From Escherichia coli (GTDB taxonomy: Bacteria > Pseudomonadota > Gammaproteobacteria > Enterobacterales > Enterobacteriaceae), in NCBI RefSeq assembly GCF_050920415.1, contig NZ_CP169310.1: a DNA stretch of 64,000 nucleotides; one strand, written 5' to 3'. Position numbers and translations under genes: made by a program. Positions within the stretch are counted from its first letter, which is position 1; the number at the start of each line of letters is the position of its first letter. The notes beneath the pieces are model-generated. The model worked only from the letters and a program-made list of their open reading frames with translations. It was not told the origin of the DNA and did not search any database. Positions 4,888 to 37,515 of the stretch are shown here, one piece after another.

Positions 4888-4901
4888 TATAGTTCTCCTG
4901 G

Positions 4902-5549: not shown

Positions 5550-5554
5550 GCACC

Positions 5555-6256: not shown

Positions 6257-6271
6257 TTTTTCTCTCCCAAA

Positions 6272-7300
6272 TTAATAACGCGCTTCGCGAAACAGCCCTA
6301 GGGCTTCTTGTACCGGTCTGTCCGAAAAACTAAATAAAACGGTATCTTGCGTGGTCTGGAACGACACACCGTGCCAGGACGGCACCACGAAGATATCTTT
6401 TGCACTAAAGCTGAAGGTTTCATTGCCGATGCTCACCTGACCGCCACCTTCCACCACATGATAGATGGTGCTGTCAGTCGTACGCGCCACACGTGAAGTA
6501 AATCCTTTTGGTAACAGTTGCAGGAAAGCGCCCATCGACGGCATCGGATAGCCACCAGTGACCGGGTTGACGTAGCGCATTTTGTAGCCATCCCATTCGT
6601 CGGCATCGCCCAGACGGGTTAAATCGTGCAGCACTTCGCGGCTGCGGTCATAACGGTAGTTAAAGATCGGCGAGGAGTTCCCCGTCTGATAGCGCAGCGG
6701 CAACATATTGGCGGCATAACGCGGCAGGTAATCGCCCTCTTTACGTGTTACCGGTTGTTGCTCTTCCGGGTAATCTTCGGCAAAACCGCAGCCCAGCGTG
6801 TTCACTAATGGCAGATCCAGCCCATCGAGCCAGATAACCGACTCCTCTCCAGGGTTACCGTGATCGTGCCAGCACCACTGCGGAGTCAGGATAAAATCGC
6901 CCTCATTCATTGGCGTGCGTTCACCGTCAACGGCAGTGAATGCCCCTTTGCCTTCAACAATAAAACGCAGCGCCGACTGGTTATGGCGATGGCTGGGGGC
7001 CACTTCGCCCGGCATGATCAGTTGCAAACCGGCATATAAAGTCGCGGTAATGGAAGACTGCCCGCGCAGCGCCGGGTTTTCCAGTACCAGCACACGACGC
7101 ACAGCTTCTTTCGCGCCAATCAGGCTGCCGCTCTTCAGCAGCAGCGGGCGGATCTCCTGATAATTCCAGTACGCTGGCGCACAGGTAGCGTTGGGCGTTT
7201 TGGGCACCAGGTGGTGCAGTGACTCCCACAGCGGGGTCAGGTTTTGCCCGGAAATATGCTGATAAAATTGCTCGCGGCTATTTTGATTGCTATCAGTCAT
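6272..7300 (-). CDS. mhbD: Gentisate 1,2-dioxygenase (bicupin)
   Basis: 342 aa with cupin His motifs ([23 protein letters not shown]). Sits between the transporter and hydrolase genes. Confidence 0.85.
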
Positions 7301-7311
7301 TGGGATGCTCC

Positions 7312-8670: not shown

Positions 8671-8792
8671 AGTAAATGCCTCAGTGCAGGTAAGGTAGAT
8701 GTTTCTTTTGTATATGTTGCGATAATGTGATTAAAGAGATGGGATGTACAATGGCATTTTGGGCAGAAAGATAACCTGGAGGTTATGGTAAA
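8671..8792. promoter_or_regulatory. Divergent mhbT / mhbR control region
   Basis: 122-bp AT-rich gap between divergently oriented transporter and LysR genes. No operator was defined. Confidence 0.45.
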
Positions 8793-9719
8793 ATGGCAAA
8801 ATGGGCGCAAAAAATAAAACTACATCACCTGCAAATGCTGGTTGCGCTGGGTGAACAGGGTAATCTGACCCACGTCGCACGGATGATGAATATCACCCAA
8901 CCCGCGCTTTCGAAATGGTTGTCACAACTCGAAGATGATATTGGAATCACACTTTTTGAGCGGCACAGCAAAGGCTTACGTCCGACTGAAGGCGGCAAAT
9001 TGTTATTGCAACATGCCCAACGGTTAATCAATGACATGGAGCGATCACAATATGAACTGGCCCGTTTTAAACAAGATGGACTGGTCGGCAGTCTGAAAAT
9101 TGGCTGTTCTCCTGTCGCCACTGACTGCGTATCCCAGGCGATTTTGCATTTGCTTACGGAGATGCCAACTCTACACCTGAATATTGAAGAGAAGGTGATG
9201 ACCCCATTGCTGCAAGATCTGTTGGCAGGTTCTGTCGATGTGGTCGTTGGGCGAATAGGCGGCCGCGCATTGCAGCTGCCACTGAATTATCAGGTGCTGT
9301 ACACCGAGCCAGTATGCTTTGTCGCCCGCCCAGAGCACCCACTGGCGAAATACGCCACCCTCAGCTGGAATGATCTTGCCAACTGGCGCTGGATAGTCTG
9401 GCCGACGGGTACCCCCATTCGCATCAGTATTGATAATGCGCTGGTAGACCACGGCGTAATGCTGCCAGAAAACACGATTGAGTCGGCGTCGATGAACGTC
9501 AGTACCAACCTGTTACAAAGCAGCGATATGATCTCTATTTTGTCATTACGCCTGGCGCAACGTTATGCCAGCCAGGGACAACTGGTGATACTCAACCTGC
9601 CAAAGATAGAACAGAAAGGCAGCGTCGGTGTGTTCTGGCGAAATAATATTCCACTCACGTATGCCTTAAGTAGATTTATAGATTTTTTAATTCATGATAG
9701 AATAGGAGAAAGTCGGTAA
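8793..9719 (+). CDS. mhbR: LysR-family transcriptional regulator of the gentisate cluster
   Basis: 308 aa with an N-terminal LysR HTH (LHHLQMLVALGEQGNLTHVARMMNITQPALSKWLSQLE). Divergent from the operon. Confidence 0.85.
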   Translation: MAKWAQKIKLHHLQMLVALGEQGNLTHVARMMNITQPALSKWLSQLEDDIGITLFERHSKGLRPTEGGKLLLQHAQRLINDMERSQYELARFKQDGLVGSLKIGCSPVATDCVSQAILHLLTEMPTLHLNIEEKVMTPLLQDLLAGSVDVVVGRIGGRALQLPLNYQVLYTEPVCFVARPEHPLAKYATLSWNDLANWRWIVWPTGTPIRISIDNALVDHGVMLPENTIESASMNVSTNLLQSSDMISILSLRLAQRYASQGQLVILNLPKIEQKGSVGVFWRNNIPLTYALSRFIDFLIHDRIGESR

Positions 9720-9726
9720 TTTATAT

Positions 9727-21833: not shown

Positions 21834-24800
21834 ATGGAGTTCAATCGGAGACAGTTCTTTCGAATCTGCGCGGGCGGTATGGCAGGAACAACTGTTGCAT
21901 CTCTCGGATTCTTATCATCTTTTTCCGTTCACGCGGAAACCCGTCAATACAAACTCTTAAAAGCAAAAGAGACACGTAATAACTGCACATACTGCTCAGT
22001 AGGGTGCGGCATGCTGATGTACAGTCTTGGCGATACAGCTAAAAACGTCAAAGAAAGTATCTACCATATTGAGGGCGATCCGGATCATCCGGTGAGCCGT
22101 GGCTCGTTGTGTCCTAAAGGCGCTGGCGTGTTGGATTATATTCATAGTAAAAACCGTCTGCAGTATCCCGAATATCGAGCACCTGGGGCAGATAAATGGC
22201 AGCGTATTAGCTGGGATGATGCGATTAATCGTATTGCCCGACTCATGAAAGATGATCGTGATGCCAACTTTATTGAGAAAAACGCACAGGGCGTTACTGT
22301 CAACCGATGGGCCACTACAGGCATGCTATGTTCCTCAGCGGCAAGCAATGAAACCGGGATCCTTGACGGTAAATTTGCTCGTGGACTAGGTATGGTCGCT
22401 ATCGACTGTCAAGCACGATTATGTCATGGCCCCACCGTTGCTGCTCTTGCACCAACATTTGGACGTGGTGCTATGACCAACAATTGGGTCGATATTAAAA
22501 ATGCCAACGTAATACTTATTATGGGCGGCAATGCTGCTGAGGCACATCCGGTAGGCTTTAAATGGGTGGTCGAAGCGCAAACTAAAAACGACGCGACCGT
22601 GGTGGTGGTAGACCCGCGCTTTAACCGTAGCGCCGCCGTCGCCGATCTGTATGCGCCAATACGCGCTGGTTCAGACACAGTATTCCTGCTCGGAGTAATC
22701 CGTTATCTGCTGAAGAACAACCGGGTGCAGCACGACTATGTGCGCCATTACACGAACGCCAGCCTTATAATACGTGATGACTATCAGTTCAATGACGGTC
22801 TGTTTAGCGGCTATGACGACAAGAAACGTCAGTATGATAAATCAAGTTGGTTCTATCAGCTTGACGAACAGGGTAATGCCCTGCGTGATGATTCATTGAA
22901 TCACCCACGCTGCGTGTGGAATTTGTTGAAAACTCACGTCGAGCGTTATACGCCAGAAATGGTTAACCGACTGTGTGGGACTACCGTGGCGGATTTCAAT
23001 CGAATCTGCGAAATTCTCGCTAGTACCTGTGTTCCTGATCGCACCGCCACCATCCTGTACGCACTGGGTTGGACACACCACTCCAACGGGGCACAGATTA
23101 TTCGCGCCGCTGCTATGCTCCAGTTACTACTGGGTAATATAGGTATGGCAGGCGGTGGTGTTAACGCCCTACGTGGCCATTCCAATATTCAGGGATATAC
23201 CGATCTTGGCTTATTGTCGACAAACCTGCCGGGCTATATGCCGCTGCCGTCGGAAAAACAGCCAGACTATCAGACCTATATTTCGCAAATCACGCCACCT
23301 GCGTTAGGTGTGAATGAGGTCAATTACTGGAAAAATACTCCGAAATTCTTTGTTAGCATGATGAAAAGTTTCTGGGGCAATAATGCAACAGTGGAAAATA
23401 ACTGGGGCTACGACTGGCTACCTAAATGGGATCGCCTGTATGACGTAATGACTCAGACCGAATTGATGCTCGAAGGGAAGCTCAATGGTTACATCGTTCA
23501 GGGATTTAACCCACTGGCGGCGTTTCCCGATAAAAACAAATCAATTCGGGCACTTTCCAAACTGAAATATATGGTGGTTATCGATCCACTGGCCACTGAG
23601 TCTTCCAATTTTTGGCAGAATCATGGCGAGATGAACGATGTAACCCCGGCAGATATTCAGACCGAAGTTTTCCGCCTGCCATCTTCCTGCTTTGCTGAAG
23701 AAAATGGTTCAATAGCTAACTCCGGGCGTTGGTTGCAGTGGCACTGGGCTGCGGCAGAACCACCAGGTGAAGCCTGGCATGACGGAAAGATCCTTGGCCA
23801 CCTGTTTATGCGACTGCGTGAACTATATCAGCAGGAAGGCGGAGCGAATCCTCAACCCTTGTTGAATATTGCCTGGAATTATAAAGATCCATATGACCCA
23901 CACCCAGAAGAGATTGCTCGTGAAGCAAATGGCCAGGCACTTGAAGACATTTATGATGATAAAGGCCAGCTTATTGCCCAGAATGGTCAGCAGCTCAGCA
24001 ATTTTGCACAGTTACGCGATGACGGCTCTACCAGTTGTTTCTGCTGGGTCTACTGTGGAAGCTGGACAGAGCAAGGTAACCAGATGGCAAATCGTGATAA
24101 TAGTGATCCATATGGTTTGGGCTGCACACCGGGCTGGGCGTGGTCATGGCCAGCCAACCGCCGTATTCTCTACAATCGCGCTTCGGCAGATCCATCAGGA
24201 AAACCGTGGGATCCAAAACGAGCTCTGCTGCATTGGGATGGCAGAAAATGGCTCGGTATGGATGTCGCAGACTATGATAAGGCAGAACCGGGCAGCAGTG
24301 TTGGTCCGTTTATCATGAATCCGGAAGGTGTAGCGCGTTTGTTCTCCATCGACAAAATGAACGACGGGCCATTCCCGGAACATTACGAACCCATTGAGTC
24401 GCCTATTGGTACTAACCCGCTGCACCCGGATGTTGTATCCAGCCCAGTTGCACGTATCTACAATGACGATATCACCAATATGGGTAAAGCGGATGCCTTC
24501 CCGTACATCGCAACAACTTACTCCATTACGGAACTGTTTCGCCACTGGACCAAACATGCTCTGCTCAACGCCATCGTTCAACCCGATCAATTCATCGAAA
24601 TCGGTGAGGCGCTGGCGAGCAAAAAAGGCATTAAAGCTGGTGATACGGTGAAAGTGATGTCGAAACGCGGCTTTATAAAAGCAAAGGCGGTGGTCACCAA
24701 ACGTCTGCAAACGCTGATGATCGATGGTAAGCAGGTCGATACAATCGGTATTCCTTGTCACTGGGGCTTTGAAGGTGCTACACGCAAAGGGTTCCTCGCC

Positions 24801-24884
24801 AATACGTTAACGCCATCGGTGGGTGATGCGAACTCGCAAACACCGGAGTATAAAGCATTTCTGGTCAACATAGAGCGAGCGTAA
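21834..24884 (+). CDS. fdnG: Formate dehydrogenase-N-type catalytic alpha subunit (Mo-bisPGD), Tat-exported, cysteine variant
   Basis: The 1016-aa ORF is uninterrupted and has a twin-arginine leader (MEFNRRQFFRICAGG). I recall it as collinear with E. coli FdnG. The active-site segment CQARLCHGPTVAALAPTFGRGAMTNNW corresponds to NQARV-U-HGPTVASL. Codon 197 is TGT at 22422-22424. Confidence 0.9.
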   Translation: MEFNRRQFFRICAGGMAGTTVASLGFLSSFSVHAETRQYKLLKAKETRNNCTYCSVGCGMLMYSLGDTAKNVKESIYHIEGDPDHPVSRGSLCPKGAGVLDYIHSKNRLQYPEYRAPGADKWQRISWDDAINRIARLMKDDRDANFIEKNAQGVTVNRWATTGMLCSSAASNETGILDGKFARGLGMVAIDCQARLCHGPTVAALAPTFGRGAMTNNWVDIKNANVILIMGGNAAEAHPVGFKWVVEAQTKNDATVVVVDPRFNRSAAVADLYAPIRAGSDTVFLLGVIRYLLKNNRVQHDYVRHYTNASLIIRDDYQFNDGLFSGYDDKKRQYDKSSWFYQLDEQGNALRDDSLNHPRCVWNLLKTHVERYTPEMVNRLCGTTVADFNRICEILASTCVPDRTATILYALGWTHHSNGAQIIRAAAMLQLLLGNIGMAGGGVNALRGHSNIQGYTDLGLLSTNLPGYMPLPSEKQPDYQTYISQITPPALGVNEVNYWKNTPKFFVSMMKSFWGNNATVENNWGYDWLPKWDRLYDVMTQTELMLEGKLNGYIVQGFNPLAAFPDKNKSIRALSKLKYMVVIDPLATESSNFWQNHGEMNDVTPADIQTEVFRLPSSCFAEENGSIANSGRWLQWHWAAAEPPGEAWHDGKILGHLFMRLRELYQQEGGANPQPLLNIAWNYKDPYDPHPEEIAREANGQALEDIYDDKGQLIAQNGQQLSNFAQLRDDGSTSCFCWVYCGSWTEQGNQMANRDNSDPYGLGCTPGWAWSWPANRRILYNRASADPSGKPWDPKRALLHWDGRKWLGMDVADYDKAEPGSSVGPFIMNPEGVARLFSIDKMNDGPFPEHYEPIESPIGTNPLHPDVVSSPVARIYNDDITNMGKADAFPYIATTYSITELFRHWTKHALLNAIVQPDQFIEIGEALASKKGIKAGDTVKVMSKRGFIKAKAVVTKRLQTLMIDGKQVDTIGIPCHWGFEGATRKGFLANTLTPSVGDANSQTPEYKAFLVNIERA

Positions 24885-24896
24885 GGAAGGTGACTC

Positions 24897-25784
24897 ATGG
24901 CTATGCAATCACAAGATATTATAAAACGCTCTGCGACGAACAACATCACGCCGCCGCCTCAGGCGCGGAATTACCGTGCAGAAGTGGCGAAACTAATTGA
25001 TGTAACCACCTGTATTGGGTGTAAAGGCTGTCAGGTAGCATGCTCAGAGTGGAACGATATTCGTGATGAAGTGGGTTACTGCAACGGAGTCTATGACAAC
25101 CCGACAGATCTCAGCGCTAAGTCTTGGACAGTGATGCGCTTTAGCGAAACCACCCAGAACGATAAGCTGGAATGGCTGATCCGCAAAGACGGTTGCATGC
25201 ACTGCGCCGATCCTGGTTGTTTGAAAGCCTGTCCATCACCTGGAGCAATCATTCAGTATGCCAACGGGATTGTCGACTTTCAGTCCGAGCACTGCATTGG
25301 CTGTGGCTACTGCATTGCTGGCTGCCCATTCAATATTCCCCGGCTTAATCCTGAAGATAATCGGGTCTATAAATGTACGTTGTGCGTTGACCGGGTCAGC
25401 GTGGGTCAGGAACCTGCCTGCGTGAAAACTTGTCCGACCGGTGCTATCCAGTTTGGAACCAAAAAAGAGATGCTTAATGTAGCTGAAACTCGTGTGGCAC
25501 AGTTGAAAAAACGTGGCTATGTCAACGCGGGTATTTACAACCCTCAAGGGATTGGCGGCACCCACGTGATGTATGTACTTCATCACGCGGATCAACCATC
25601 TCTTTACCACAATCTGCCAGATGACCCCAAAATCGCCGTACCAGTAAACTTCTGGAAGGGGATTTTAAAACCACTCTCCGCAGCCGGATTTATCGCCACT
25701 TTTGCCGGGCTGATTTACCACTACGTGGGAGTAGGCCCAAACAAAGAGACGGATGATGATGAAAAGGAAAACGGTCATGAGTAA
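24897..25784 (+). CDS. fdnH: Formate dehydrogenase beta subunit (4x[4Fe-4S], C-terminal TM anchor)
   Basis: 295 aa with CxxCxxCxxxC clusters ([38 protein letters not shown]...). Confidence 0.9.
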
Positions 25785-26430
25785 AAGCAACATGATTCTG
25801 CGTACCAAATTTATCGACCGTGCTTGTCACTGGACGGTGGTAATAAGCTTCTTCCTGGTGTCACTTTCCGGTATTGCGCTTTTCTTCCCAACATTGCAAT
25901 GGCTTACTGAAACCTTCGGTACACCGCAAATGGGACGAATTCTACATCCGTTTATCGGAGTGATGATTTTCATCATGCTGATGTTTATGTTCGTTCGTTT
26001 TGTATACCACAATATTCCCGATAAACAGGATCTTCCTTGGATTAAAGGGATCGTTGATGTACTTAAAGGCAATGAGCATAACGTCGCTGATGTGGGGAAA
26101 TACAACGCAGGGCAGAAAATGATGTTTTGGAGCATCATGAGCCTGATTCTGGTATTACTGGTTACCGGCGTTATTATCTGGAGGCCATACTTTGCCCATT
26201 ATTTCTCAATTAACATAGTTCGTTGGTGTTTGTTAATCCACGCGACAGCAGCTATTGTACTGATTCACGCCATTCTGATTCATATATACATGGCGTTTTG
26301 GGTAAAAGGTTCAATTAAAGGTATGATTGAAGGGAAAGTTAGTCGACGCTGGGCGAAGAAACACCATCCTCGCTGGTATCGTGAGGTTGAATCTACTGAA
26401 AAAGAAACAACGGAATTACAGTCTAAGTAA
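25777..26430 (+). CDS. fdnI: Formate dehydrogenase gamma subunit (cytochrome b556)
   Basis: 217 aa from [22 protein letters not shown]...; it looks very similar to E. coli FdnI as I recall it. The start overlaps the fdnH end. Confidence 0.9.
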
Positions 26431-26496
26431 AAGATCACCTCCTAAGGAGCTGGTTTCAGATTGCAGACAAAGTCCTAAATAACTGCTCCTAATACC

Positions 26497-26960
26497 GCTA
26501 CACTGTAAGCGTCAACGGAGCACCGTATTGACGCTTATTTATTGGTGAGAACTACGTTCCATGGCAGGAGTTCGTCAACACGGTTGGAGGGCCATTCCGG
26601 CAGTACGCTCAGAATATGGCGCAGATACGCTTCCGGATCGATACCGTTCAGACGGCAGGTGTCGCGATCAGCCCGTACAGCAGTGCACCACGCTCGCCGC
26701 CGTGATCGCTACCGAAGAACACGTAATTTTTCTTTCCGAGACAGACAGCACGAAGCGCTCTTTCCGCTGTGTTATTGTCCGCCTCCGCCAGACCGTCATC
26801 ACTGTAATAACAGAGGACGTCCCACTGATTCAGTACATAGCTGAACGCTTCGCCCAGTCTGGAGTTTTTCGACAGCGTGCCATTCTTCTCCACCATCCAT
26901 TCATGCAGCGACGTCAGTAACGCTTTGCTTCGCTGCTGCCTGACTGCTATTCACCGGAAA
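26497..26960 (-). pseudogene. IS66-family right end plus frameshifted 3' part of tnpC
   Basis: IR gtaagcgtcaacgg... at 26497. Minus-strand fragments read ...NNTAERALRAVCLGKKNYVFFGSDHGGERGALLYGLI... and ...PEAYLRHILSVLPEWPSNRVDELLPWN. Confidence 0.7.
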
Positions 26961-26979
26961 GGAGCCAGTCAGTGAATAC

Positions 26980-27135
26980 CTAGTGAAATCGCTTCACCAG
27001 AGAAAAAATAGCGGTTTTGCTGACACCAGTCTGCGCAGAAATGCGCGGGTACGACAGTGACTCGTCAAATCTCAGCTGTAGCACACGCGGGATTAATTCC
27101 GGATTATCTGCCAGTACCGCCTTTCGTGCATTCAT
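26980..27135 (-). CDS. Small (51-aa) HTH-like protein, possibly IS- or resolvase-derived
   Basis: Hand translation gives MNARKAVLADNPELIPRVLQLRFDESLSYPRISAQTGVSKTAIFSLVKRFH*, which contains an HTH-like SYPRISAQTGVSKTAIFSLV segment. Confidence 0.35.
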   Translation of the reverse strand: MNARKAVLADNPELIPRVLQLRFDESLSYPRISAQTGVSKTAIFSLVKRFH

Positions 27136-27336: not shown

Positions 27337-28509
27337 TTAATCTCGTGAATATATATCACGAGTATATACTTTATCTCTGACATCCATTAATTCATCTGTA
27401 ATTCTGTTCGCGAGTATAATGTCTGACTTTTTTTTGAATACAGGCAATTCATTGACTAATATTAAATCACTTACTGTTTTATTTTGCAATATTGGTTCAT
27501 ATATAATAATAGATATGTCTCTTGACTTTAGTTGACGGATGATATCCATAACGGCAGACTCACGGAAGTTATCTGAACCATTTTTCATAATAACTCGATA
27601 AAAACCCACTACTTTATGTTTTTTTTCCAATACTCTCTGTACAATAAAAGATTTACGTGTATCGTTTGCTCTCACTGTAGCAGTAATAATATCGCAGTGT
27701 ATATTTAGTTTATCATAGTTTGCTTTCAGTTGTTTCGTATCTTTTGGCAGACAATATCCACCATAACCAAATGATGGGTTATTATAATAATCACCAATTC
27801 TTCTATCCAGACAGACACCTCTGATTATATCTTTAGTGTTCAGCCCCGTAATTTCAGCATAGGTATCAAGTTCATTGAAAAATGCCACTCTTGTAGCGAG
27901 AAAAGCATTGGAAAATAGTTTTATTGCTTCAGCTTCTGCAGGCTCTGTGAACAAAACGGGTACATCCCTTTTCATTGCAGCATTTTTCATAATACTGGCA
28001 AAATGCCTCGCGCACTCTGAACGCTCTCCGATAATAATTCGAGATGGATAGAGATTATCATATAGTGCTTTCCCTTCACGTAAGAATTCTGGCGAAAATA
28101 TTATTTTGTCAGTGCAATATTTATGTCTGACTTTTTTTGTAAATCCAACAGGGATCGTTGATTTAATGATTATCACTGCCTGTGGATTAAATTTTACCAC
28201 ATCTTCTATAACTGACTCCACAGAAGCAGTATCAAAGAATCCTGTATTAGGATCATAATCAGTTGGAGTAGCAATTATAACATAATCAGCATCTAGGTAA
28301 GCTTCACTTTTATGCGTGGTTGCTTTAAAACAAATATTCCCATTTTGGAATACCTCCCGTATTTCATCATCATCAAGCGGTGAAATTCGTTTGTTCAACT
28401 GCTCAACCCTAATGGCATCAATATCAAATGCCGTCACATTATGATAACGTGCAAGAAGTAGTGCATTGGATAACCCAACGTATCCAGTTCCTGAAACGGT
28501 AATATTCAT
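27337..28509 (-). CDS. ugd: UDP-glucose 6-dehydrogenase
   Basis: 390 aa; [20 protein letters not shown]...[24 protein letters not shown]...[14 protein letters not shown] is collinear with E. coli Ugd. Last gene of the operon. Confidence 0.9.
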
Positions 28510-28540
28510 ATTTCACACCATAAAAATAACGATTATTCAG

Positions 28541-29881
28541 TTAAATTTTTATTTCTACTTCTAGACCGACTGAATATGCAGGGGAACTGCGGGGAGAATT
28601 TTCAGTAGATGATGCCCGAAAACGCTCTGATGGCATAAACATCCCTAGCAATAGCTCAGTTTTTATATTTTTACTAAATTCGTAGCCCCAGATAAGATCT
28701 ATTTCACTCCCGAGATCCAGAGTAGAACTATTGTCATAACGGGACTTCAGGTCTGGATCATGAGAAGATAAAAAATCCCTGTCTGATTGTCTATAATAAT
28801 GATATACAAGATCCAGTGAACTGCTTGGGGATATATCCATTCCAGTGCCAACCGTCAGGATACGTATATTTGTCAACTCTGGAGATAATGTATTACCATA
28901 AATACTGAATTTAGTATTTCCACCAAAGCTGGCTTCATTCGACTGCAATCCGGTCTGATGATATTTTTTACTGGCTATGGCGTAACCCAGAGTAAAGCGG
29001 CTGCGCGATGGACTGTTATGAATCCAGGTAAGCCCTGCATCAATTACCCTCCCCTGATATTTTTTTTCGGATTTTTCTGCATACATTCCTCCGACCTCCA
29101 GCCAGTGCCGCCATCCCGTATCCGATGTACTGTGGGAACGTATCCCGTAAAAAGACTGACGCTCATATACATCATGCGTGTTTTTATTTACAGCAAAATA
29201 AATACCGGTATCCCAGTCCTTTTCCACACTGTACTGCAAAAATGCAGATTGTACGGATATCACACTTTTGTTACGTGTTGTATCATCAAGCAAATCTCGC
29301 TGCCAGTAATTCACACGTCCTGCCACCATCTCCACCTGCCAGTCATCTTTTTTCCAGCGCCCCCATATACCATCAAGATTTTCATCAAAAAGCCATTCTC
29401 TGACATCGCGGTACAGCCACCGCCCGGCTCGAATTTCTGCTCCGACTTCACGCAAACTTCCCCCTATATATCCCTGAGTCAGTTCCAGTCGGGTTTTATG
29501 TTCTTCTGGTTTACCGGAATCCCTCCTGGTTTTGTTTTTCAGTTCAGCTTCCGCCACACCATACAGAGAAGACTTTCTGGCAATCTCAATTCTTAAACGA
29601 TATTGTGGCTCAAATTCATGTCGGTTTTCCTGCTTTTGTCCCTTCCTTAATGTTCTGTTCCGCCAGCTCTCGCCTTCCAGCTTCATTGTAGAATGAAACC
29701 GTATCAGTTGTTCCCGGTTACTTCTGTCCCCGGACAGACTGTTTTTTTTTGGACGAAATAACTCATTGTCAACAGACTCTGAAGCCTGTACCGGAACTAC
29801 TCCACAAACAAAAAACAGAAGAAAATAACCACAGAATCGACCGGAACCGTTTCTGAACATAATTAAAAATACTCCATGCAC
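28541..29881 (-). CDS. Outer-membrane beta-barrel, AlgE/alginate-export-family-like (the start is more likely the ATG at 29860)
   Basis: Signal-peptide-like MFRNGSGRFCGYFLLFFVCGVVPVQA|SE, with alternating beta-strand pattern throughout. The C-terminal LGSEIDLIWGYEFSKNIKTELLLGMFMPSERF...VGLEVEIKI resembles the alginate_exp motif (LG.E.DL......l......g.F.PG..F). Confidence 0.55.
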   Translation of the reverse strand: MHGVFLIMFRNGSGRFCGYFLLFFVCGVVPVQASESVDNELFRPKKNSLSGDRSNREQLIRFHSTMKLEGESWRNRTLRKGQKQENRHEFEPQYRLRIEIARKSSLYGVAEAELKNKTRRDSGKPEEHKTRLELTQGYIGGSLREVGAEIRAGRWLYRDVREWLFDENLDGIWGRWKKDDWQVEMVAGRVNYWQRDLLDDTTRNKSVISVQSAFLQYSVEKDWDTGIYFAVNKNTHDVYERQSFYGIRSHSTSDTGWRHWLEVGGMYAEKSEKKYQGRVIDAGLTWIHNSPSRSRFTLGYAIASKKYHQTGLQSNEASFGGNTKFSIYGNTLSPELTNIRILTVGTGMDISPSSSLDLVYHYYRQSDRDFLSSHDPDLKSRYDNSSTLDLGSEIDLIWGYEFSKNIKTELLLGMFMPSERFRASSTENSPRSSPAYSVGLEVEIKI

Positions 29882-30876
29882 TTTTCACAATAAGCAAGCA
29901 AAAGTAGGGTGGTATGCTTCCGCCCCGGAATTCGGGTACTCAAAAAAATATGCCGGGCCAGTGATAACAACCGGAACCCTTCCGTTTCTTTCACTGTTAC
30001 CCCGGACATGTGGCTGAGCCATGACTCCACAAATGCTGTTTCATGTGCATGGAATATCCGGTAATCCCCCTTATAGCGGATCCCCAGTTCACAGACATGG
30101 GCCAGCCAGTTACCAGCATCCAGAGCGGAAGGCCCGGTACAACTCAGGTCAAAATCAAGAAGGGTCAGACAGCGTCTGTCATTTCGGTTACTGATAATCT
30201 GATCAGGGTAAAAATCACGATGAAGGCAGCTTTTCCGTGTACCCGAAAGAACAGCAGCCACTTCACGCAGCCCTTTCATCAACGCATCGATACGTTTATA
30301 AAGGGCAACGTTTTCCTCTCCTGCTATTGTCAGTCCCTGCTCAAGTACAGACAGTTCATCTGTCAGAGTCCACTGCCGTCCATTCACGACCCGGGCCAGT
30401 TCACCATGCTGCTGAAGGGCAGAAAGTGCGTATCCGACAGCTGTGCCAGTACTTATCTGCTCGTGCCTAGAAAACACATTTGAAATCAGTACGTCTGTCA
30501 GCAAAAGACCATCAACATGACGCTGCAGCCACATTCTCTTTTCCGGCAAAATCATCAACGGTTCCGGCACACTGATCCGGTTCTGCCGATGAAAACCATC
30601 AGACCACAATGCCTGCTGACAGCAGTATGAAAATTTATCAACCCCCTTTTCACGATACTTCCCAACAATCAGCAGAGGAGAAGAACTCCCTCGTCTCCCA
30701 AAATGGTATTCAATCAGAGCCCTACGCCCAGGCTTCTGCCGTAATAACCGGGTACTAATAAGTTGACTATCTGCTGTCACACAAGGGAGTTTGAGGAGAA
30801 AAGATTGCATTTCATGGACAGAACAAAGCTCCTGCAACGTTGCCTGCCACTCAGGAGATAGGTGTAGCTGACGCAC
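29863..30876 (-). CDS. Kinase-fold phosphotransferase (APH / protein-kinase-like superfamily), substrate unknown
   Basis: 337 aa with an N-lobe LLRQKPGRRALIEYHF, a catalytic-loop-like CLHRDFYPDQII and a metal-site-like LTLLDFDLS. Confidence 0.55.
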   Translation of the reverse strand: MRQLHLSPEWQATLQELCSVHEMQSFLLKLPCVTADSQLISTRLLRQKPGRRALIEYHFGRRGSSSPLLIVGKYREKGVDKFSYCCQQALWSDGFHRQNRISVPEPLMILPEKRMWLQRHVDGLLLTDVLISNVFSRHEQISTGTAVGYALSALQQHGELARVVNGRQWTLTDELSVLEQGLTIAGEENVALYKRIDALMKGLREVAAVLSGTRKSCLHRDFYPDQIISNRNDRRCLTLLDFDLSCTGPSALDAGNWLAHVCELGIRYKGDYRIFHAHETAFVESWLSHMSGVTVKETEGFRLLSLARHIFLSTRIPGRKHTTLLLLAYCEKCMEYF

Positions 30877-32176
30877 AGATATCCTCCACTCTGTTCAGTA
30901 ACAGTTCTGCTTTTTTCGGCCAGTAGGCATCCCGTTTACGAAAAGGCTCCACAACAAGACACATCAGCGCTTTTGCGGTATACCATTCGATATCAAAAGC
31001 ATTGATCTTTCGTTCCATTTTGTATCCGGCAAGCAGTGCGTCATGAATTCCTCTTGCCTGAGCAGCGGTGAGCTCTCCGTTAATGACATCCATTTCAGTC
31101 CGGGCAATAAAGCTGCCGGGATCACCAGCAGGATGACCATATACACAACGATCCCAGTCGATGATATTCACACTCCGGCCATCCTCTGCAACGATAACCT
31201 GATCAGCAGAAAAATCTCCGTGCAAAAGAACCTGCTCATGGCTCAGCCATTCAGATAACGCCTTCAGACGAAGAATACAATGACTAAAACGTTCCGCGAG
31301 CTCTGGATAAAGTGCAGTCACCATGCCATGTTCCTGCCAGAGCTGCTGGAGCGCCTCCCGGCAGGTTTGTTTCTCTGGCAGGAAATAAGGCTCATTATGG
31401 ATCTTGGCCAGTGACTTTCCAGTCAACGTGACCAAACTGAGATATTCCTGACCATGCAGAAAATAATCCAGACTTTTTCCCGCTATCCATCGGGTAGCGA
31501 TCAGTCTGTCTGTTTCATTCACCCCCAGAAGTTCAATATGAGCCAGAGAGGATCCGGCCTGGCTTCCCCGTAACTGACGAAAAAACTCTTTTTCTGCCGC
31601 ACAACGAATGACCGCAAAAGGATGTTCATCTCTATAAACACCAATGACACAACGACGCCCGGGTTTGTAACGCAAAAAATGCCAGCGTTCCCGCTCTTGT
31701 CCGGTGACTGAGCCTCGTGCATTCTGCAGCAGTGCTGTATATTTATTATTATACAGTGCGGCCAGGCATAACTTGCGATCCAGTTGTGGTGAAGAAATAA
31801 ATGCAGCCAGTTCATCAAGTAATACAGGGGTTTCAGGCCAGTCACTGGTATTTTTCCCGTCAGAAACTAATCGACTGCAATAAGATATAAATCTGGAGCG
31901 CGTCAGCGCTCTGACAAAACAAAAATACGGTATCTCATCAGCAATATAGAGCGTCACCCCCACGACACAACTGGTTTTAGGTTTGTAACGGATGTAGGTA
32001 ACGCTTACACGCTTCAGGGATAAAAAAGGCTTTTGCTGTCGCAGAACGCCAGTCAGCACCGTTTCGTCAAGTAGTGCAGCAAGCCCGGGCAGCATGGAAT
32101 CCCGGCTAACAAGAGCGCGCTCAACATCATTCAGCATTCCCTTTTCCCTCCTTCTGCAGTAACCACAGTTCTGCAT
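30851..32176 (-). CDS. Kinase-fold phosphotransferase with an extra N-terminal pseudo-N-lobe (the start may be the ATG at 32137)
   Basis: 441 aa with two KP(K/G)..C.(V/I)GV segments (YIRYKPKTSCVVGV; FLRYKPGRRCVIGVY), then LLHGDFSADQVIV and NIIDWDRCVYGHPAGDPG (APH-type HGD....N/D and DWD motifs). Confidence 0.55.
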   Translation of the reverse strand: MQNCGYCRRREKGMLNDVERALVSRDSMLPGLAALLDETVLTGVLRQQKPFLSLKRVSVTYIRYKPKTSCVVGVTLYIADEIPYFCFVRALTRSRFISYCSRLVSDGKNTSDWPETPVLLDELAAFISSPQLDRKLCLAALYNNKYTALLQNARGSVTGQERERWHFLRYKPGRRCVIGVYRDEHPFAVIRCAAEKEFFRQLRGSQAGSSLAHIELLGVNETDRLIATRWIAGKSLDYFLHGQEYLSLVTLTGKSLAKIHNEPYFLPEKQTCREALQQLWQEHGMVTALYPELAERFSHCILRLKALSEWLSHEQVLLHGDFSADQVIVAEDGRSVNIIDWDRCVYGHPAGDPGSFIARTEMDVINGELTAAQARGIHDALLAGYKMERKINAFDIEWYTAKALMCLVVEPFRKRDAYWPKKAELLLNRVEDICASATPIS

Positions 32177-33941
32177 AGCGTCCCTGTCGTGCCATCAGAG
32201 AATGGTGATTGCCTCGCTCCGTTATTTTTCCCTGCTCCATGAAAATAACTTCATCAGCCTGAGCGGCCAGAGATAAATCATGTGTGATAATCAGTGCTGT
32301 TTTATTCTTGAGGAGTCTTTTCAGCTCTGTAAAGACCGCCAGTTCATTTATACTATCCAGCCCTACACCTGGTTCATCAAGCAGAATAAAAGGCGTATTC
32401 AGGAGAATCACCCGGGCAATTGCTATGCGCTGTCGCTGCCCTCCGGAAAGCGTATTTCCACGTTCTCCTACTATAGTATTATATCCCTGTGGTAGCCCGC
32501 TGATGAACTCATGTGCATTGGCCTGTCTGGCCGCTGCAATTATTTCATCATCACTGAAGGTCTTTCCTGCTCCCAGCGTAATATTATCCCGAATACTGTA
32601 TCCGAATAACAGGGGCTCCTGAGGTAGATATCCAATCCTCTGACGCAGAGATGTCACACAAAACTCGTGCAACTCATTCTTTCCCAAAAGGATACGACCA
32701 GAATCCGGCTCATATAACCGTAACAATAAACGGCTGAGCGTGGATTTTCCAGCCCCCGAGGGTCCGGTCACTGCCAGAGTATGACCCGACGGGAGATGGA
32801 AACTGACATTATGAAGAGTTCTACCGCACTCTCCATTCTTTCCCTCTCGGTAAGTGAAACTAACATTTTCAAAGCGAATATCCGGCATCTCTGATAACGG
32901 CAGTTTTTTTCCCTCAACAGAGTATTCTACTGGCAGATAATGCAGTAACCCTGCAACCCTTTCTCCAGCTGTAAATGCCCTGATCAGACGCGTACTGTAT
33001 CTTGCAAACTCACGTACAGGACGGAACATATTTTTCAGGTAGGATAAAAAAACCAGTAATTCTCCGGCTGACATTTTTCCGCTCAGAACACTTCTGGCTC
33101 CCAGCAGTAATACCATAGCTGTGATCCCCGCAATCAACAGTTCAATCAGACACTCCAGCCCGACAGCCTGTTTTCTGGCTTTCACATTCTGTTGTAGACT
33201 CTGTCGTTCCGGTCCCTCAAATGCCCTTATGGCATCTTTCTCCAGTGCCATGGCCTGAACTGTTGCTATCGCAGTCATGAACTCTGCTGAACGGGCAGCA
33301 AGTTCCCCTTCATGCTGTCTCTGAACCCGGTTGACATCTCTGATCCGTCTTCCTCTCCAGACTGTCACCAGCACAAGAAGTGGAACCGGAAGCAATGCTA
33401 CCACTGTCAGTTGCCAGTTCAGCCAGAGCATGATGCCGGCCATACCAGTGAACACTGTAAGGCTAGATAACAGAGGCATTACAGCTGTCACCATCGCATC
33501 ACGCATCATTCCGATATCATTTATCAGTCTCATAGTCAGATCACCGGCTCTCAACTCCTGATGAGCTGAAAGGGGTAATCTTAGCAGATGTGTAAACAGT
33601 GACTTCCGGATAATGCTCAGGATCCTGCTTCCGGCCAAGGCCATTCTGGTTGCGGTGAAATAGCCACATAATCCCTTTAGCACAGCTATAGCAATAACAC
33701 CCAGAGCACATCCCGGTAACAGATAGTCTTGGATAGTGTCATTCCCGACCGAAAACCAAGAAAAGTCATCATATCTGGCTTTTCCCAGAACAAAATCCAC
33801 AGCAAGTGCTAATGGCCAGGGTTCCAGTAACCGGATAATACTGGTCAGAAGTAATGTCAGAAATACACTTGACAACAGCATCTTCTGTGTCCGGATGGCC
33901 GGCCAGAACGTTCGTAATACCTGCTGATGTTCAGACTTCAT
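32127..33941 (-). CDS. Fused TMD-NBD ABC exporter (MsbA / NdvA-ChvA type half-transporter)
   Basis: 604 aa with six N-terminal hydrophobic segments, Walker A GPSGAGKST, signature LSGGQRQR and Walker B FILLDEPG. Confidence 0.85.
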   Translation of the reverse strand: MKSEHQQVLRTFWPAIRTQKMLLSSVFLTLLLTSIIRLLEPWPLALAVDFVLGKARYDDFSWFSVGNDTIQDYLLPGCALGVIAIAVLKGLCGYFTATRMALAGSRILSIIRKSLFTHLLRLPLSAHQELRAGDLTMRLINDIGMMRDAMVTAVMPLLSSLTVFTGMAGIMLWLNWQLTVVALLPVPLLVLVTVWRGRRIRDVNRVQRQHEGELAARSAEFMTAIATVQAMALEKDAIRAFEGPERQSLQQNVKARKQAVGLECLIELLIAGITAMVLLLGARSVLSGKMSAGELLVFLSYLKNMFRPVREFARYSTRLIRAFTAGERVAGLLHYLPVEYSVEGKKLPLSEMPDIRFENVSFTYREGKNGECGRTLHNVSFHLPSGHTLAVTGPSGAGKSTLSRLLLRLYEPDSGRILLGKNELHEFCVTSLRQRIGYLPQEPLLFGYSIRDNITLGAGKTFSDDEIIAAARQANAHEFISGLPQGYNTIVGERGNTLSGGQRQRIAIARVILLNTPFILLDEPGVGLDSINELAVFTELKRLLKNKTALIITHDLSLAAQADEVIFMEQGKITERGNHHSLMARQGRYAELWLLQKEGKGNAE

Positions 33942-35100
33942 CCAATCCTCCAGTCAGCAGCGTAATATCGGCATATAACCAGATTTTCCTAAGCACATTC
34001 TCCCAGCTATTCTGTTTCACATATAGACCTCCGGCTTCCCCCATTTTCCGGCACAACGAAGGGGAGTCAGCCAAAGTGATAATTGCATCAGATAGTGCTG
34101 ACGGTGATTCTGGTGGGATCAGAAGTCCGGTTTTTTCATGCTTTACAATGCTATCAAGATCTCCGGTTCGAGATGTGATTACTGGCAATTCTGCCGCCAT
34201 ATATTCATAAATTTTAAGAGGCGAAAAATAAAAATCATCGAAATGCGGATAGGGAGCAACCCCCGCATCAGCACAAGCAAGCAATGCAGGAACATCACAA
34301 TGAGCAACACCACCATGAAATACCACTGCGTTATCTACACCAGCACTCCGGAAAGCATTCTCCAGTGCTGGACGCTCCGGTCCATCCCCGATGATAGAAA
34401 GACTAATATCTGTTCTCTGACGACGCAGTAAAATAAACGCTTCTGCCAAGGTATCCATCCCGTGCCAGGGCTTCAGGGTTCCGGAAAATACCACAGTAAA
34501 AACGCTACCCCGCGCCATGTTTTTTTTATAAAAAGAAGCCGGATTCACGCCGTTTCGGACAACATGGACTTTTCCTTCTGTTGCAGGTAATGTCTCCAAC
34601 CAACGACGGATACCGGGCGAAACTGCTATCACCGTACTGGCATACTCCAGTACAAGCTCCAGTACTTGATAAGCTTCATGCTCCATCACCATCTTTCGCC
34701 AGCGTTTCTGCTCCAGCGGAAGGGGAGCATTAACCTCCAGTATGCCCGGGATCCCTGCATTCCGGGCATATTCCATCCCGGCAAAACTCCAGAGAGAATA
34801 GCGCTCATAAACAACATCAAAAGGACCGGCAGACACCAACCTACTCTTCAGTTCTTGATTTCCCCTGAGTGCTTGACTGGCTTTTTCCTCATCTGAATCT
34901 GTTCCGGATAAATCAAAAAGAGGGACAACCCTGACAGCACGAAATTCTTCCGGTACTGGCGAAAATCCCCGGCAGGTAAACAATGTCACATCCATACCGG
35001 CGTTCAGCATTTCCCTGAGCATTCCCTGGATATGAATGGAAGCTCCTTTATATCCAAAAACAGGAATACCAGGATCTGCACAAACATAGGCCACTCTCAC
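33931..35100 (-). CDS. GT4-family glycosyltransferase
   Basis: 389 aa; MRVAYVCADPGIPVFGYKGASIHIQ..., with a C-terminal E-x7-E-type region KIYEYMAAELPVITSRTGDLDSIVKHEKTGLL. Confidence 0.8.
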   Translation of the reverse strand: MRVAYVCADPGIPVFGYKGASIHIQGMLREMLNAGMDVTLFTCRGFSPVPEEFRAVRVVPLFDLSGTDSDEEKASQALRGNQELKSRLVSAGPFDVVYERYSLWSFAGMEYARNAGIPGILEVNAPLPLEQKRWRKMVMEHEAYQVLELVLEYASTVIAVSPGIRRWLETLPATEGKVHVVRNGVNPASFYKKNMARGSVFTVVFSGTLKPWHGMDTLAEAFILLRRQRTDISLSIIGDGPERPALENAFRSAGVDNAVVFHGGVAHCDVPALLACADAGVAPYPHFDDFYFSPLKIYEYMAAELPVITSRTGDLDSIVKHEKTGLLIPPESPSALSDAIITLADSPSLCRKMGEAGGLYVKQNSWENVLRKIWLYADITLLTGGLDEV

Positions 35101-36344
35101 TGAACTCTCTCCTGTATTCCTGCCTGAATTGCATCCTCAAATATTTCACGCAGTCGCCGGGTGTTACGATCAATATCAAATGCATCTTCAATTCGTTTTC
35201 TCGCATTCAGCGCCAGATACTTCCTCAGCACAGCATCACCAGCCATTCTTTCAATGGCATCAGCCATTACACCCGGTTTTTCAGGATCAATACAGAATCC
35301 AGTGTGGCCGTCAGTCACCAGTTCAGGGATCCCGGCAACCCGGGTAGAAATAACAGGCAATCCCTGCGCCATGGCCTCCAGTAATACTGTCGGCAACCCA
35401 TCCCGGTCCCCATCACTACTGATAATGCAGGGAGCAACCAGCATCGTGGCCCGGTGCATAGCCATTTTCACATATCCCTGAGGTTGGGCTCCGGTCAGTG
35501 TGATGACAGACGACAGACCACTCTCTTCAACCTGTCGCCTCAGCATCTCTTTTAGAGGACCATCTCCCACTAAAGTGCAGTGAAAATTCATTCCCCGACA
35601 ATACAACAAACGCAGCGCTTCAATCAGCGTACTGAAGCCCTTTTTAACGACCAAACGTCCCACCGCTAATATTTCAGTGTTTTCCGGCCCTATGAGATTG
35701 TCGCGACACAGGTATTGTTGTAAATCAATACCGTTATAAAGCCTCTCCAGTGAAGCCAGATTTCCACCATACTTTTTCTGTAACCAGGCACAATTATAAT
35801 CTGATACAGTAATCACCCGGCTCGCATCCCGGAGCTTCAGGGAAATTGCAGAGTCTTCAGGATAATCAAAATAAATATCTTTCGCATGTGCGGTAAAGCT
35901 GTACGTGATCCCTGCGAGTTTTGCTGCCAAGCGAGCGACTGTGGTCGCTTTTGTAGCAAAATGTGCATGAAGATGCCTGATCCCTCTTTCCTGTACAGTT
36001 GCTGCCAACATCACTGCCTGAGCAAATTCGTGTACATGATTATATCCGGGATCGGAAAAACATCCGGAAAGTTCCGGTAGTAACGGAAAAGAACGGCGCA
36101 GTAAATCATGATAATATTCAGCATTATATTGCCTAGAATTAAAACGAGTTACCGGTGCTTTTACCCGGGAAATAGATTCCTGAAAAAAAGCCTCCTGAAC
36201 ATCTCCAAGGGCGAAAATATCCAGCTTCATTCCGGCTCGTTCATGAGCGAGAATTTCATTGACAATAAATGTTTCTGAAAAGCGGGGATAGCGTTTAACC
36301 ACATATCCGACATAAGGGTGTTTATTATCCATTACACTCTCCAT
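35097..36344 (-). CDS. GT4-family glycosyltransferase (WcaL-like architecture)
   Basis: 415 aa; ...GDGPLKEML...GLPTVLLEAMAQGLPVISTRVAGIPELVTDGHTGF. There is a 4-nt ATGA overlap with the next gene. Confidence 0.8.
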   Translation of the reverse strand: MESVMDNKHPYVGYVVKRYPRFSETFIVNEILAHERAGMKLDIFALGDVQEAFFQESISRVKAPVTRFNSRQYNAEYYHDLLRRSFPLLPELSGCFSDPGYNHVHEFAQAVMLAATVQERGIRHLHAHFATKATTVARLAAKLAGITYSFTAHAKDIYFDYPEDSAISLKLRDASRVITVSDYNCAWLQKKYGGNLASLERLYNGIDLQQYLCRDNLIGPENTEILAVGRLVVKKGFSTLIEALRLLYCRGMNFHCTLVGDGPLKEMLRRQVEESGLSSVITLTGAQPQGYVKMAMHRATMLVAPCIISSDGDRDGLPTVLLEAMAQGLPVISTRVAGIPELVTDGHTGFCIDPEKPGVMADAIERMAGDAVLRKYLALNARKRIEDAFDIDRNTRRLREIFEDAIQAGIQERVQ

Positions 36345-36354
36345 GCCATTGATT

Positions 36355-37515
36355 TTAATTATTTTCTCTCCGCGCTGTAAATATCGCGTTCATTTTTTCT
36401 GTAAAGGAATGCAGCCCATTCAGACTGAGGTAAAGTCGTGGATCTGAAGGACACCAGTCGGAAATCAGCCAATCAGTTATTGACTGTGGCGTCAGACTGT
36501 CCGGATGCAAACATGTAACCAGATTCTTTTCTGCCATCCGTGAAGCACGTATCCATTGCTCAAGACGAGGAACAATACGGGGAATAATCAATGCCCGTTT
36601 CCGTAATGAAAGAATTTCCCGTAAGGTGTTATATCCCCCCATTGCCACCACGCTGTGCGTATGCTGTAGAAGAAAAAGAGGATCAGATACAAAACGAATA
36701 ATATGTAAATCATTACGCATGGACGCAATACGCTGTAATGATGTCACTTCCTCCCGAGCCATCTGGCTACCGGTAAGAATAACACCGTCCATCCCTGGCG
36801 GTAACAATGTCTCTGCAAATACAGATGCAAGGTGGTAGCCATCCTGCCCTCCCCCTGTAAGACATAATACGAATGGACGAGAAATCAGAGACTGAAATTG
36901 CTCATCCTGTAACACCGATGGAGATAATGGAACATCCGGATATCCAAGAAAACTGATTTTTCGGTATACTGATGGTTCCGGAGCAAGATCAAGCGACAAA
37001 TCATAGAATGAACGATCGCCATAAATCCATATATCAGAATAATACTGACGGACAATCGTATAATTATCTGCAGCATGCCATTGATGACGAACAACTGATG
37101 GTTCATCAATAATATCCCTGAGTCCAAGAATCAGATGCACATTATCATCAACCAATTCCGGAAGCACCGGCAGCAGTTCTGATAACGCCCCAGCAGGTAC
37201 ATTATCCACAACCATTACATCCGGACAATATTCACTCAATGCAGCTCGAATTATCTGTCTCCGAAGGCTAACCAATTTCCGGGTATTATTGCCCAGTGAC
37301 CGGGGGTGATATTTGCCGCACAACGTTTTGGCATAGGCTGGTAACGTAAGAATATCTGAGCGTTCAGGTAGTGTAAATAATCCGGATTCACGGGCACTGT
37401 TAATAATCAAAATTTCAGTATCAGAAAACCTTTTCTGAACTGCTCCTGCAAGCAAAAGATTTCGCCGTAAATGCCCAAGCCCCATCGTATCATGAGAATA
37501 AAACGCCAGCTTCAT
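36355..37515 (-). CDS. GT-B-fold glycosyltransferase (MurG/GT28-like, COG4671-type); first gene of the operon
   Basis: 386 aa; MKLAFYSHDTMGLGHLRRNLLLAGAV... and ...LCLTGGGQDGYHL...VVAMGGYNTLREILSLRKRALIIPR resemble MurG/UDP-glycosyltransferase C-terminal motifs. Confidence 0.6.
   Translation of the reverse strand: MKLAFYSHDTMGLGHLRRNLLLAGAVQKRFSDTEILIINSARESGLFTLPERSDILTLPAYAKTLCGKYHPRSLGNNTRKLVSLRRQIIRAALSEYCPDVMVVDNVPAGALSELLPVLPELVDDNVHLILGLRDIIDEPSVVRHQWHAADNYTIVRQYYSDIWIYGDRSFYDLSLDLAPEPSVYRKISFLGYPDVPLSPSVLQDEQFQSLISRPFVLCLTGGGQDGYHLASVFAETLLPPGMDGVILTGSQMAREEVTSLQRIASMRNDLHIIRFVSDPLFLLQHTHSVVAMGGYNTLREILSLRKRALIIPRIVPRLEQWIRASRMAEKNLVTCLHPDSLTPQSITDWLISDWCPSDPRLYLSLNGLHSFTEKMNAIFTARRENN

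Follow-up and report, generated by a model that had tools for sequence, protein, structure and literature searches.

We describe an operon for a formate dehydrogenase-N (FDH-N), fdnG-fdnH-fdnI, at positions 21834-26430 of a 64,000-nucleotide stretch of DNA from Escherichia coli (assembly GCF_050920415.1, contig NZ_CP169310.1), referred to below as the window. The reading frames are uninterrupted in the list of open reading frames (ORFs), and the catalytic alpha subunit has a cysteine, Cys197, in place of the selenocysteine (Sec) of E. coli FdnG. The window is part of a p7v-family IncF virulence plasmid of the Shiga toxin-producing/enterotoxigenic E. coli (STEC/ETEC) type from Escherichia cryptic clade I. 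To our knowledge, E. coli is the textbook case of an organism in which all formate dehydrogenases are selenoproteins. We consider with reasonable confidence that the locus is an intact, horizontally acquired Cys-type FDH-N operon. The sequence data show the integrity of its genes, the Cys/Sec column, the conserved ligands, the origin, the distribution and the pattern of selection; from these we infer activity, expression, the use of maturation factors of the host and any benefit to it. The operon probably encodes a functional, selenium-independent FDH-N.

The active-site residue was assigned from a pairwise alignment with E. coli FdnG, for which fdnG from an E. coli chromosome was translated through its in-frame TGA. 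The initial annotation had put a cysteine in the Sec column, and the alignment bears this out: Cys197 lines up exactly with Sec196 (DCQARL-C-HGPTV versus DNQARV-U-HGPTV), and the single gap in the alignment is one residue long and lies within the signal peptide. Identity to E. coli FdnGHI is 70% for the alpha subunit and 84% for the beta subunit. With TGT rather than an in-frame UGA at its active site, the alpha subunit falls outside the selenoprotein FdhA class. The fold energy of the 48 nucleotides after this codon gave a z-score of -0.8 in the window and -1.3 in genuine E. coli fdnG; the known selenocysteine insertion sequence (SECIS) element was likewise indistinct by this measure.

The predicted cofactor ligands are conserved throughout the complex. 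Residue roles are those established for structure 1KQF. The active-site residues C197-H198 and R447 and the FS0 cysteines C51/C54/C58/C93 of the alpha subunit align with U196-H197, R446 and C50/C53/C57/C92 of the E. coli protein. The beta subunit keeps all 17 cysteine positions of E. coli FdnH and shares with FDH-N the 16 cluster cysteines and the membrane anchor. In the gamma subunit, the four heme-ligand histidines (His18, His57, His155 and His169) are all kept in the alignment with 1KQF_C, which is gap-free over residues 1-210 of that chain. The N-terminus of the alpha subunit, MEFNRRQFFRICAGG...SVHA, aligns with the signal peptide of E. coli FdnG and contains NRRQFFR, which as a sequence motif points to the twin-arginine translocation (Tat) pathway. 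The Tat leader and the beta and gamma subunits are thus intact, as had been reported at first.

Profile searches place all three proteins with FDH-N. The alpha subunit matched TIGR01553 (the FDH-N alpha equivalog) over its full length, with 1542.9 bits against a cutoff of 814.2, and 1KQF_A with 1760 bits; the best matches in the PDB were chains A and C of 1KQF. The beta subunit scored 467 bits with TIGR01582 (cutoff 335) and matched PF13247 and PF09163 (Form-deh_trans). The gamma subunit scored 434 bits with NF007558 (FdnI; cutoff 339) versus 265 bits with the FdoI model. The RefSeq annotation already names the plasmid genes fdnG, fdxH and fdnI. Gene order and spacing are those of E. coli fdnGHI, with a 12-nt gap between fdnG and fdnH and an 8-nt overlap between fdnH and fdnI. 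The coordinates first given for the alpha and beta genes and for the end of the operon stand, as does the claim of an alpha frame open over 1016 codons. For the gamma gene, the earlier start at 25753 is less likely than 25777, which is the RefSeq choice and from which the alignment to chain C of 1KQF is collinear.

The operon is most closely related to Cys-type operons on the chromosomes of Citrobacter, Kluyvera and Kosakonia, not to E. coli fdn, in agreement with the horizontal acquisition that had been proposed. The closest is that of Citrobacter pasteurii, with 95% amino acid identity in the alpha subunit and 92.65% nucleotide identity over the operon (blastn). Identity of the alpha subunit is 94-95% in C. 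pasteurii, Citrobacter freundii and Citrobacter sp., 92% in Kluyvera, 87-89% in Kosakonia, Enterobacter sp. and Pantoea ananatis, and 85% in the Klebsiella oxytoca complex. The motif DCQARLCHGPTV is present in all of these relatives, and the 90%-identity cluster of the alpha subunit includes C. freundii, the Klebsiella oxytoca complex, Kluyvera ascorbata and P. ananatis. In a neighbour-joining tree, the plasmid protein stands beside that of C. pasteurii, inside the Citrobacter/Kluyvera/Kosakonia Cys clade and apart from the Sec-type Escherichia branch. By motif, tree position and an alpha identity of at least 85%, it belongs to the Enterobacteriaceae Cys-type FDH-N clade. The enzyme type is common outside E. 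coli, and the plasmid operon is of a well-populated, known kind.

The active-site codon was tallied over the 80 species loci that, of those retrieved, were most similar. Cysteine is encoded at 65 of them (TGC at 44, TGT at 21) and TGA is found at the other 15, which are fdn-type genes of Escherichia, Enterobacter, Buttiauxella, Lelliottia and Phytobacter with 69-70% identity. Because 65 of the 80 loci encode cysteine and the plasmid protein is nested in the Cys clade, the cysteine is ancestral to this very large clade. The one-base difference between TGT and TGA that had been pointed out earlier therefore does not reflect a recent change; a recent TGA-to-TGT mutation of E. coli fdnG is ruled out by the identity of only 70% and by the occurrence of the cysteine across the whole clade. 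The donor of the operon was most likely a Citrobacter-like Enterobacteriaceae chromosome.

The plasmid context is well defined. Both pCFSAN004180G/pCFSAN004179G and the plasmids of strains 10290, HH091_1A and KS167_9B match positions 21700-26500 of the window, and their flanks, with 100% identity. The operon region is 100% identical in IncF plasmids of 214-242 kb from strains GB089, 09-00049, 08-00022 and 06-00048 and from 'Escherichia sp.' 10290, HH091_1A, KS167_9B and HH154_1D. The p7v-family chimeric STEC/ETEC plasmids of Escherichia cryptic clade I were described by Okuno et al. (2023) without mention of formate (PMC10100065). According to its annotation, pCFSAN004180G has two STa genes, K88-like fimbriae, two S6/serine protease autotransporters of Enterobacteriaceae (SPATE) proteases, the enterohaemolysin genes ehxCABD and a type VI secretion system, together with a full F-type transfer region and IncFII/RepB replicons. 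The virulence element on which the operon had been said to ride is thus this plasmid family. Other cargo includes a gentisate pathway cluster and a polysaccharide-export-like cluster.

Of 5426 complete E. coli genomes, 17 contain the operon; in each of them it lies on a plasmid of the p7v family, in a single piece and without interruption. Given that all 17 genome matches are plasmids and that the identity to Escherichia IncF plasmids is 100%, the window is not chromosomal DNA of a species with a Cys-type enzyme. The exact alpha protein is recorded on 863 contigs and in 1178 collection blocks, and the 25 longest contigs read all have the neighbourhood STa-IS21-fdnGHI-IS66-polysaccharide. Copies are 99.4-100% identical to one another. 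The most divergent E. coli plasmid copy, on pOkiPb01695_1, has seven conservative substitutions in the alpha subunit and no disruptions.

A diverged copy, intact as well, occurs at another E. coli locus (L093, GCA_051559265.1, 7828-12635), with 97.8% protein and 95.8% DNA identity. Its context differs from that of the plasmid, with a Pap/Mrp-like fimbrial operon adjoining and IS3/IS21 insertion sequences (IS) downstream. By blastn, its homology to the window covers 21661-26470, slightly past the Citrobacter homology at both ends (Table 1), which suggests a cassette of approximately 4.8 kb whose source was a donor not yet sampled or an earlier carrier. The upstream leader shared by the two E. 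coli copies was probably flanking DNA in the true donor or in an earlier carrier. The flanks of the L093 copy gave no clue to the donor, consisting only of IS elements and a fimbrial operon hardly ever found in complete E. coli genomes, and no other piece of the Citrobacter flank, such as a umuC fragment, turned up in a search of the rest of the plasmid. IS fragments bracket the operon, as first noted: IS21, IS3 and IS91 pieces lie upstream and an IS66-family fragment (26505-26947) lies downstream. The segments 21520-21752 and 26433-26504 are not IS-derived.

Table 1. Features of the fdnGHI locus and its flanks, in window coordinates.
Feature	Position	Strand	Description and basis
fdnG, catalytic alpha subunit	21834-24884	+	1016 codons, no internal stop; Mo-bisPGD and [4Fe-4S]; Pfam domains
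Tat signal peptide of fdnG	21834-21935	+	codons 1-34
TGT codon, Cys197	22422-22424	+	in frame in fdnG; column of Sec196 (TGA) of E. coli FdnG; His198 next
fdnH/fdxH, beta subunit	24897-25784	+	294 amino acids and stop; four [4Fe-4S] motifs, C-terminal membrane anchor
fdnI, gamma subunit, di-heme cytochrome b556	25777-26430	+	217 amino acids
Candidate sigma-70-like promoter	21764-21792	+	-35 TTGCCC, 17-bp spacer, -10 TAAAAT; consensus scan, alignments
Shine-Dalgarno GGAG	21825-21828	+	in 5' leader invariant across ten chromosomal orthologues
Segment homologous to C. pasteurii fdnGHI	21753-26432	+	81 bp before start codon to 2 bp past stop; blastn, junction alignments
Upstream leader	21661-21752	+	common to L093 copy, not in Citrobacter chromosomes
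Short downstream flank	26433-26470	+	common to L093 copy, not in Citrobacter; Citrobacter terminator hairpin absent
Decayed IS mosaic, upstream	19225-21519	.	RefSeq annotation of identical plasmid; megablast versus E. coli genomes, thousands of multi-copy matches
Frameshifted IS21 istA/istB	19225-20993		
IS21 end	20995-21066		
IS3/IS1203-like fragment	21062-21224		
IS91-associated fragment	21231-21519		
IS66-family remnants, downstream	26505-27135	-	tnpC fragment 26505-26950 and TnpB fragment 26983-27135

We evaluated selection on the operon from its substitution pattern. Relative to C. pasteurii, the ratio of nonsynonymous to synonymous divergence (dN/dS) is 0.076 for the alpha, 0.045 for the beta and 0.141 for the gamma gene. 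Using Citrobacter sp. FP75 as the outgroup, nearly all of the divergence is assigned to the E. coli branch (dN 0.019, dS 0.32, ratio ~0.06). Substitutions on this branch are strongly directional, with 113 from GC to AT versus 16 from AT to GC, and the GC content at third codon positions (GC3) of fdnG is 0.49 versus 0.58-0.67 in relatives; the GC content of the whole window is 0.474. This composition could stem from a long period on AT-rich mobile DNA, with purifying selection acting, or from an unsampled donor of lower GC content; both readings argue against a decaying pseudogene. As a side observation, the GC drift at a dN/dS near 0.06 could act as a rough clock of the stay on AT-rich mobile DNA.

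The upstream region was compared with that of ten chromosomal orthologues. Nine of the ten have an inverted repeat, TAACCA-N11-TGGTTA, approximately 60-85 bp upstream of fdnG (window 21740-21775), with its centre ~41 bp ahead of the likely transcription start; downstream of it come a TATAAT or TACAAT box and an invariant leader ending in GGAG. Both E. coli copies retain the -10 box, the leader and the Shine-Dalgarno sequence, and the plasmid TAAAAT aligns with the conserved box of the orthologues. The altered right half of the repeat creates the -35 element TTGCCC, a match of 4/6 to the consensus versus 2/6 in Citrobacter. As a control, E. coli fdnG itself was searched and gave an FNR-like site with two mismatches at -78 from the start codon. 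No terminator-like site was found after the operon, the native terminator having been left behind at capture. Regulation thus probably differs, to judge from these elements, from that of both E. coli fdn and the donor, and the '-N' label is used here because of protein homology, not regulation. The CC-N13-GG spacing of the inverted repeat is reminiscent of IscR type-2 sites, and IscR may be a candidate for its binder.

Maturation would fall to the host. The window and the entire 225-kb plasmid contain no homologue of FdhD or FdhE (best tblastn E-value, 0.11; annotation), which extends the earlier statement that fdhD and fdhE are absent, and the plasmid also has no sel or molybdenum (Mo)-cofactor genes by the same searches. 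We infer that the operon relies on the host for maturation. Within 8 kb of the chromosomal loci of Citrobacter, Kluyvera and Kosakonia there is likewise no fdhD or fdhE; the operon type therefore seems normally to rely on accessory genes located elsewhere, as does E. coli fdnGHI, whose maturation uses chromosomal fdhD and fdhE. Many more distant Cys-type loci do have fdhD or fdhE nearby.

Based on these data, the proposed course of events is as follows. A cassette from a Citrobacter-like chromosome would have entered the IS-rich accessory region of a clade I IncF plasmid and would have remained under purifying selection throughout while drifting to the AT-rich composition of the plasmid. Transcription would probably start from the retained -10 element, paired with the new and better -35 element, the native upstream control element being gone. 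Translation would proceed without UGA recoding, SelA, SelB, SelC, SelD or selenium. By homology to 1KQF, the alpha subunit would be exported by the Tat pathway along with the beta subunit, and the host would supply Mo-cofactor synthesis, the FdhD sulfurtransferase, FdhE and Tat. Formate would be oxidized in the periplasm at a Mo-bis-pyranopterin centre with Cys197, rather than selenocysteine, as the protein ligand, and the quinone pool would receive the electrons by way of five [4Fe-4S] clusters and the gamma subunit's two b-hemes.

Several findings weigh against an active, maintained enzyme. An IS110-family element of 1.28 kb lies inside fdnH of one copy (L086, GCA_046698015.1, 11536-12811; insertion point at window 25366-25368), and five similar places were collapsed with this one among the 25 contigs read; the insertion indicates that the operon is dispensable at least in that sublineage. 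Recent clonal spread of the plasmid, instead of selection for the operon, may account for how nearly identical the copies are and for their perfect linkage with neighbouring genes. The E. coli host already has three Sec-type enzymes, FDH-N, FDH-O and FDH-H, so that the new one would be redundant. Both E. coli copies lack the left half of the inverted repeat, which the capture junction cut off, and carry a mutated right half. The promoter scan overall did no better than chance, and a motif search of the 300 bp upstream found no NarL heptamers and only one FNR-like match, with three mismatches, 230 bp upstream in foreign DNA. Finally, replacing Sec with Cys in E. coli FdhF greatly lowers turnover, according to the account of Axley et al. 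(1991) given in PMC7384014, and the kinetics of the plasmid enzyme are thus not to be assumed.

The alternative that fares best is a neutral passenger: a potentially functional enzyme without benefit to the host, kept only because of its place among decayed IS elements beside selected virulence genes (STa, fimbriae and the polysaccharide cluster) on a plasmid in recent, clonal spread. We regard this as possible but, on balance, unlikely. It would fit the IS-rich mosaic setting, the linkage to the neighbouring cluster in 17 of 17 genomes, which together with the near-identity of copies is consistent with recent spread, the broken fdnH of one sublineage, the loss of the native control element and the Sec-type enzymes already present in the host. 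However, dN/dS stayed at ~0.06 on the E. coli branch despite approximately 150 directional substitutions, although part of that branch may lie in an unsampled donor. Moreover, none of the 17 complete copies is disrupted, in contrast to the neighbouring IS genes, nearly all of which are pseudogenes, and the diverged second copy is intact in another context.

A locus that is silent or unmatured in E. coli, either through its truncated promoter or because a foreign alpha subunit is not accepted by the FdhD, FdhE or Tat proofreading of the host, seems quite improbable. It would fit the retention of only 81 bp of native upstream DNA, the destroyed inverted repeat and a plasmid without accessory genes. 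Yet the -10 element, the invariant leader and the Shine-Dalgarno sequence were kept and the -35 match improved, the native Citrobacter, Kluyvera and Kosakonia loci also do without nearby fdhD and fdhE, the donors are close relatives of Escherichia, and purifying selection is not expected at a silent locus.

An active enzyme with another role, such as one suited to oxygen exposure, to another quinone or acceptor or to the detoxification of formate from formaldehyde metabolism, the cysteine being incidental, is more improbable still. The C. pasteurii operon adjoins frmRA, the upstream control element is unlike the FNR/NarL architecture of E. coli fdn, and species such as Citrobacter and Klebsiella have Sec-type enzymes too, the operon being an extra copy there. 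Against this, the frm adjacency is not conserved, the neighbours in Kluyvera and Kosakonia being different, and the active site is indistinguishable by sequence from that of FDH-N except for the cysteine. In detail, the Cys-type fdnGHI of C. pasteurii (L003) lies between divergent frmR-frmA (6247-7739) and umuDC-cybB (12706-15134). The frmR-frmA genes serve formaldehyde detoxification, which yields formate. The neighbours are an AraC/FtrA-like regulator in Kluyvera and a class A beta-lactamase in Kosakonia. Because they differ among these genera, the operon is an accessory insertion in its chromosomal hosts too.

Compared to E. coli FDH-N (FdnGHI, 1KQF/1KQG), which it resembles in gene order, spacing, Tat signal, FS0 cysteines, active-site His and Arg, and gamma heme histidines, the plasmid enzyme has Cys (TGT) for Sec196 (TGA), its operon has no upstream FNR site or NarL heptamer, and it sits between IS remnants, whereas E. 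coli fdnGHI sits between yddG and adhP. With the chromosomal Cys-type fdnGHI operons of Citrobacter, Kluyvera, Kosakonia, the K. oxytoca complex and P. ananatis, it shares its clade, an alpha identity of 85-95%, DCQARLCHGPTV, the invariant 5' leader, the -10 region and the absence of adjacent fdhD and fdhE. Unlike them, the plasmid copy has lost the inverted repeat and the terminator, has the lower GC3 and resides on a conjugative virulence plasmid.

Formate dehydrogenases with Cys in place of Sec are widespread, and bacterial replacements of Sec with Cys have been documented mainly for FdhA and SelD (PMC1794560, PMC13188914). A precedent for an active enzyme of this kind in Enterobacterales is the FdhF of Pectobacterium atrosepticum (FHL-2), a natural Cys-for-Sec Mo-dependent formate dehydrogenase whose activity was demonstrated genetically (PMC7384014). 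It is a cytoplasmic, chromosomally encoded enzyme of the FdhF type that works with hydrogenase-4 in a species without any Sec machinery, whereas the plasmid enzyme is predicted to be a periplasmic respiratory FDH-N. A conceptual precedent for respiratory modules on plasmids is provided by the tetrathionate respiration genes on an IncY plasmid of E. coli Fec10 (PMC7984374).

Genes for FDH-N occur in 148 of 72,556 PLSDB plasmid records, mostly chromids or megaplasmids, and the combination of an Escherichia host and a Cys-type enzyme occurs only in the p7v family. Among enterics, a Cys-type fdnG-fdxH-fdoI operon is present on plasmids of Providencia rettgeri, such as pVCSW10.1 (L100, 4001-8634); its identity to the p7v operon is only 74%. 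The conjugative E. coli plasmid pECTOK-001_1 (L103, 2888-11045) carries yddG-fdnGHI-adhP beside ISEcp1 and differs in that this is E. coli's own Sec-type operon. In the accessible literature, with the original p7v paper outside this search, we found no description of this operon as a plasmid-borne or Cys-type FDH-N in E. coli.

Some further features of the region were observed. The IS91-associated fragment upstream of the operon is 89% identical to window positions 16556-16857, and two identical sta1 (STa) genes, at window 17620-17838 and at 123946-124164 of NZ_CP012500.1, each lie just downstream of an IS91-family fragment. This arrangement hints at IS91-type one-ended capture in the building of the region. 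A polysaccharide synthesis/export-like cluster on the minus strand (27337-37515) occurs in exactly the same 17 of 5426 genomes as the operon, always on a plasmid. It comprises genes for a nucleotide-sugar dehydrogenase, an alginate-export-family outer-membrane protein, two APH-like phosphotransferases, an ATP-binding cassette (ABC) transporter and three glycosyltransferases; no description of its function was found in the accessible literature. Further metabolic cargo of the plasmid is a complete, IS-flanked cluster for gentisate/3-hydroxybenzoate degradation (3695-9720), with genes for 3-hydroxybenzoate 6-monooxygenase, maiA, a fumarylacetoacetate hydrolase-family gene, gtdA, a major facilitator superfamily (MFS) transporter and a LysR regulator.

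In terms of biology, the conjugative virulence plasmid of an emerging STEC/ETEC hybrid lineage probably adds a fourth formate dehydrogenase to the host's three, a respiratory one that is independent of selenium. A tentative extension, which we consider doubtful, is that the operon is a selected fitness factor of the clade I plasmid, its rewired promoter freeing it from the donor's regulator and from selenium and so permitting formate respiration in a selenium-poor or Sec-limiting gut, such as that of ruminants or an inflamed one, in which the three selenoenzymes of the chromosome would be limited. Since the class is common and annotated, the advance would be ecological and physiological, not mechanistic. 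If the enzyme is active, it would provide a natural, E. coli-compatible Cys-type FDH-N with which to gauge the limits that selenium sets on formate respiration in the gut, and Sec and Cys enzymes could be compared within one host. It would also be a candidate metabolic fitness factor that moves together with toxin and adhesin genes.

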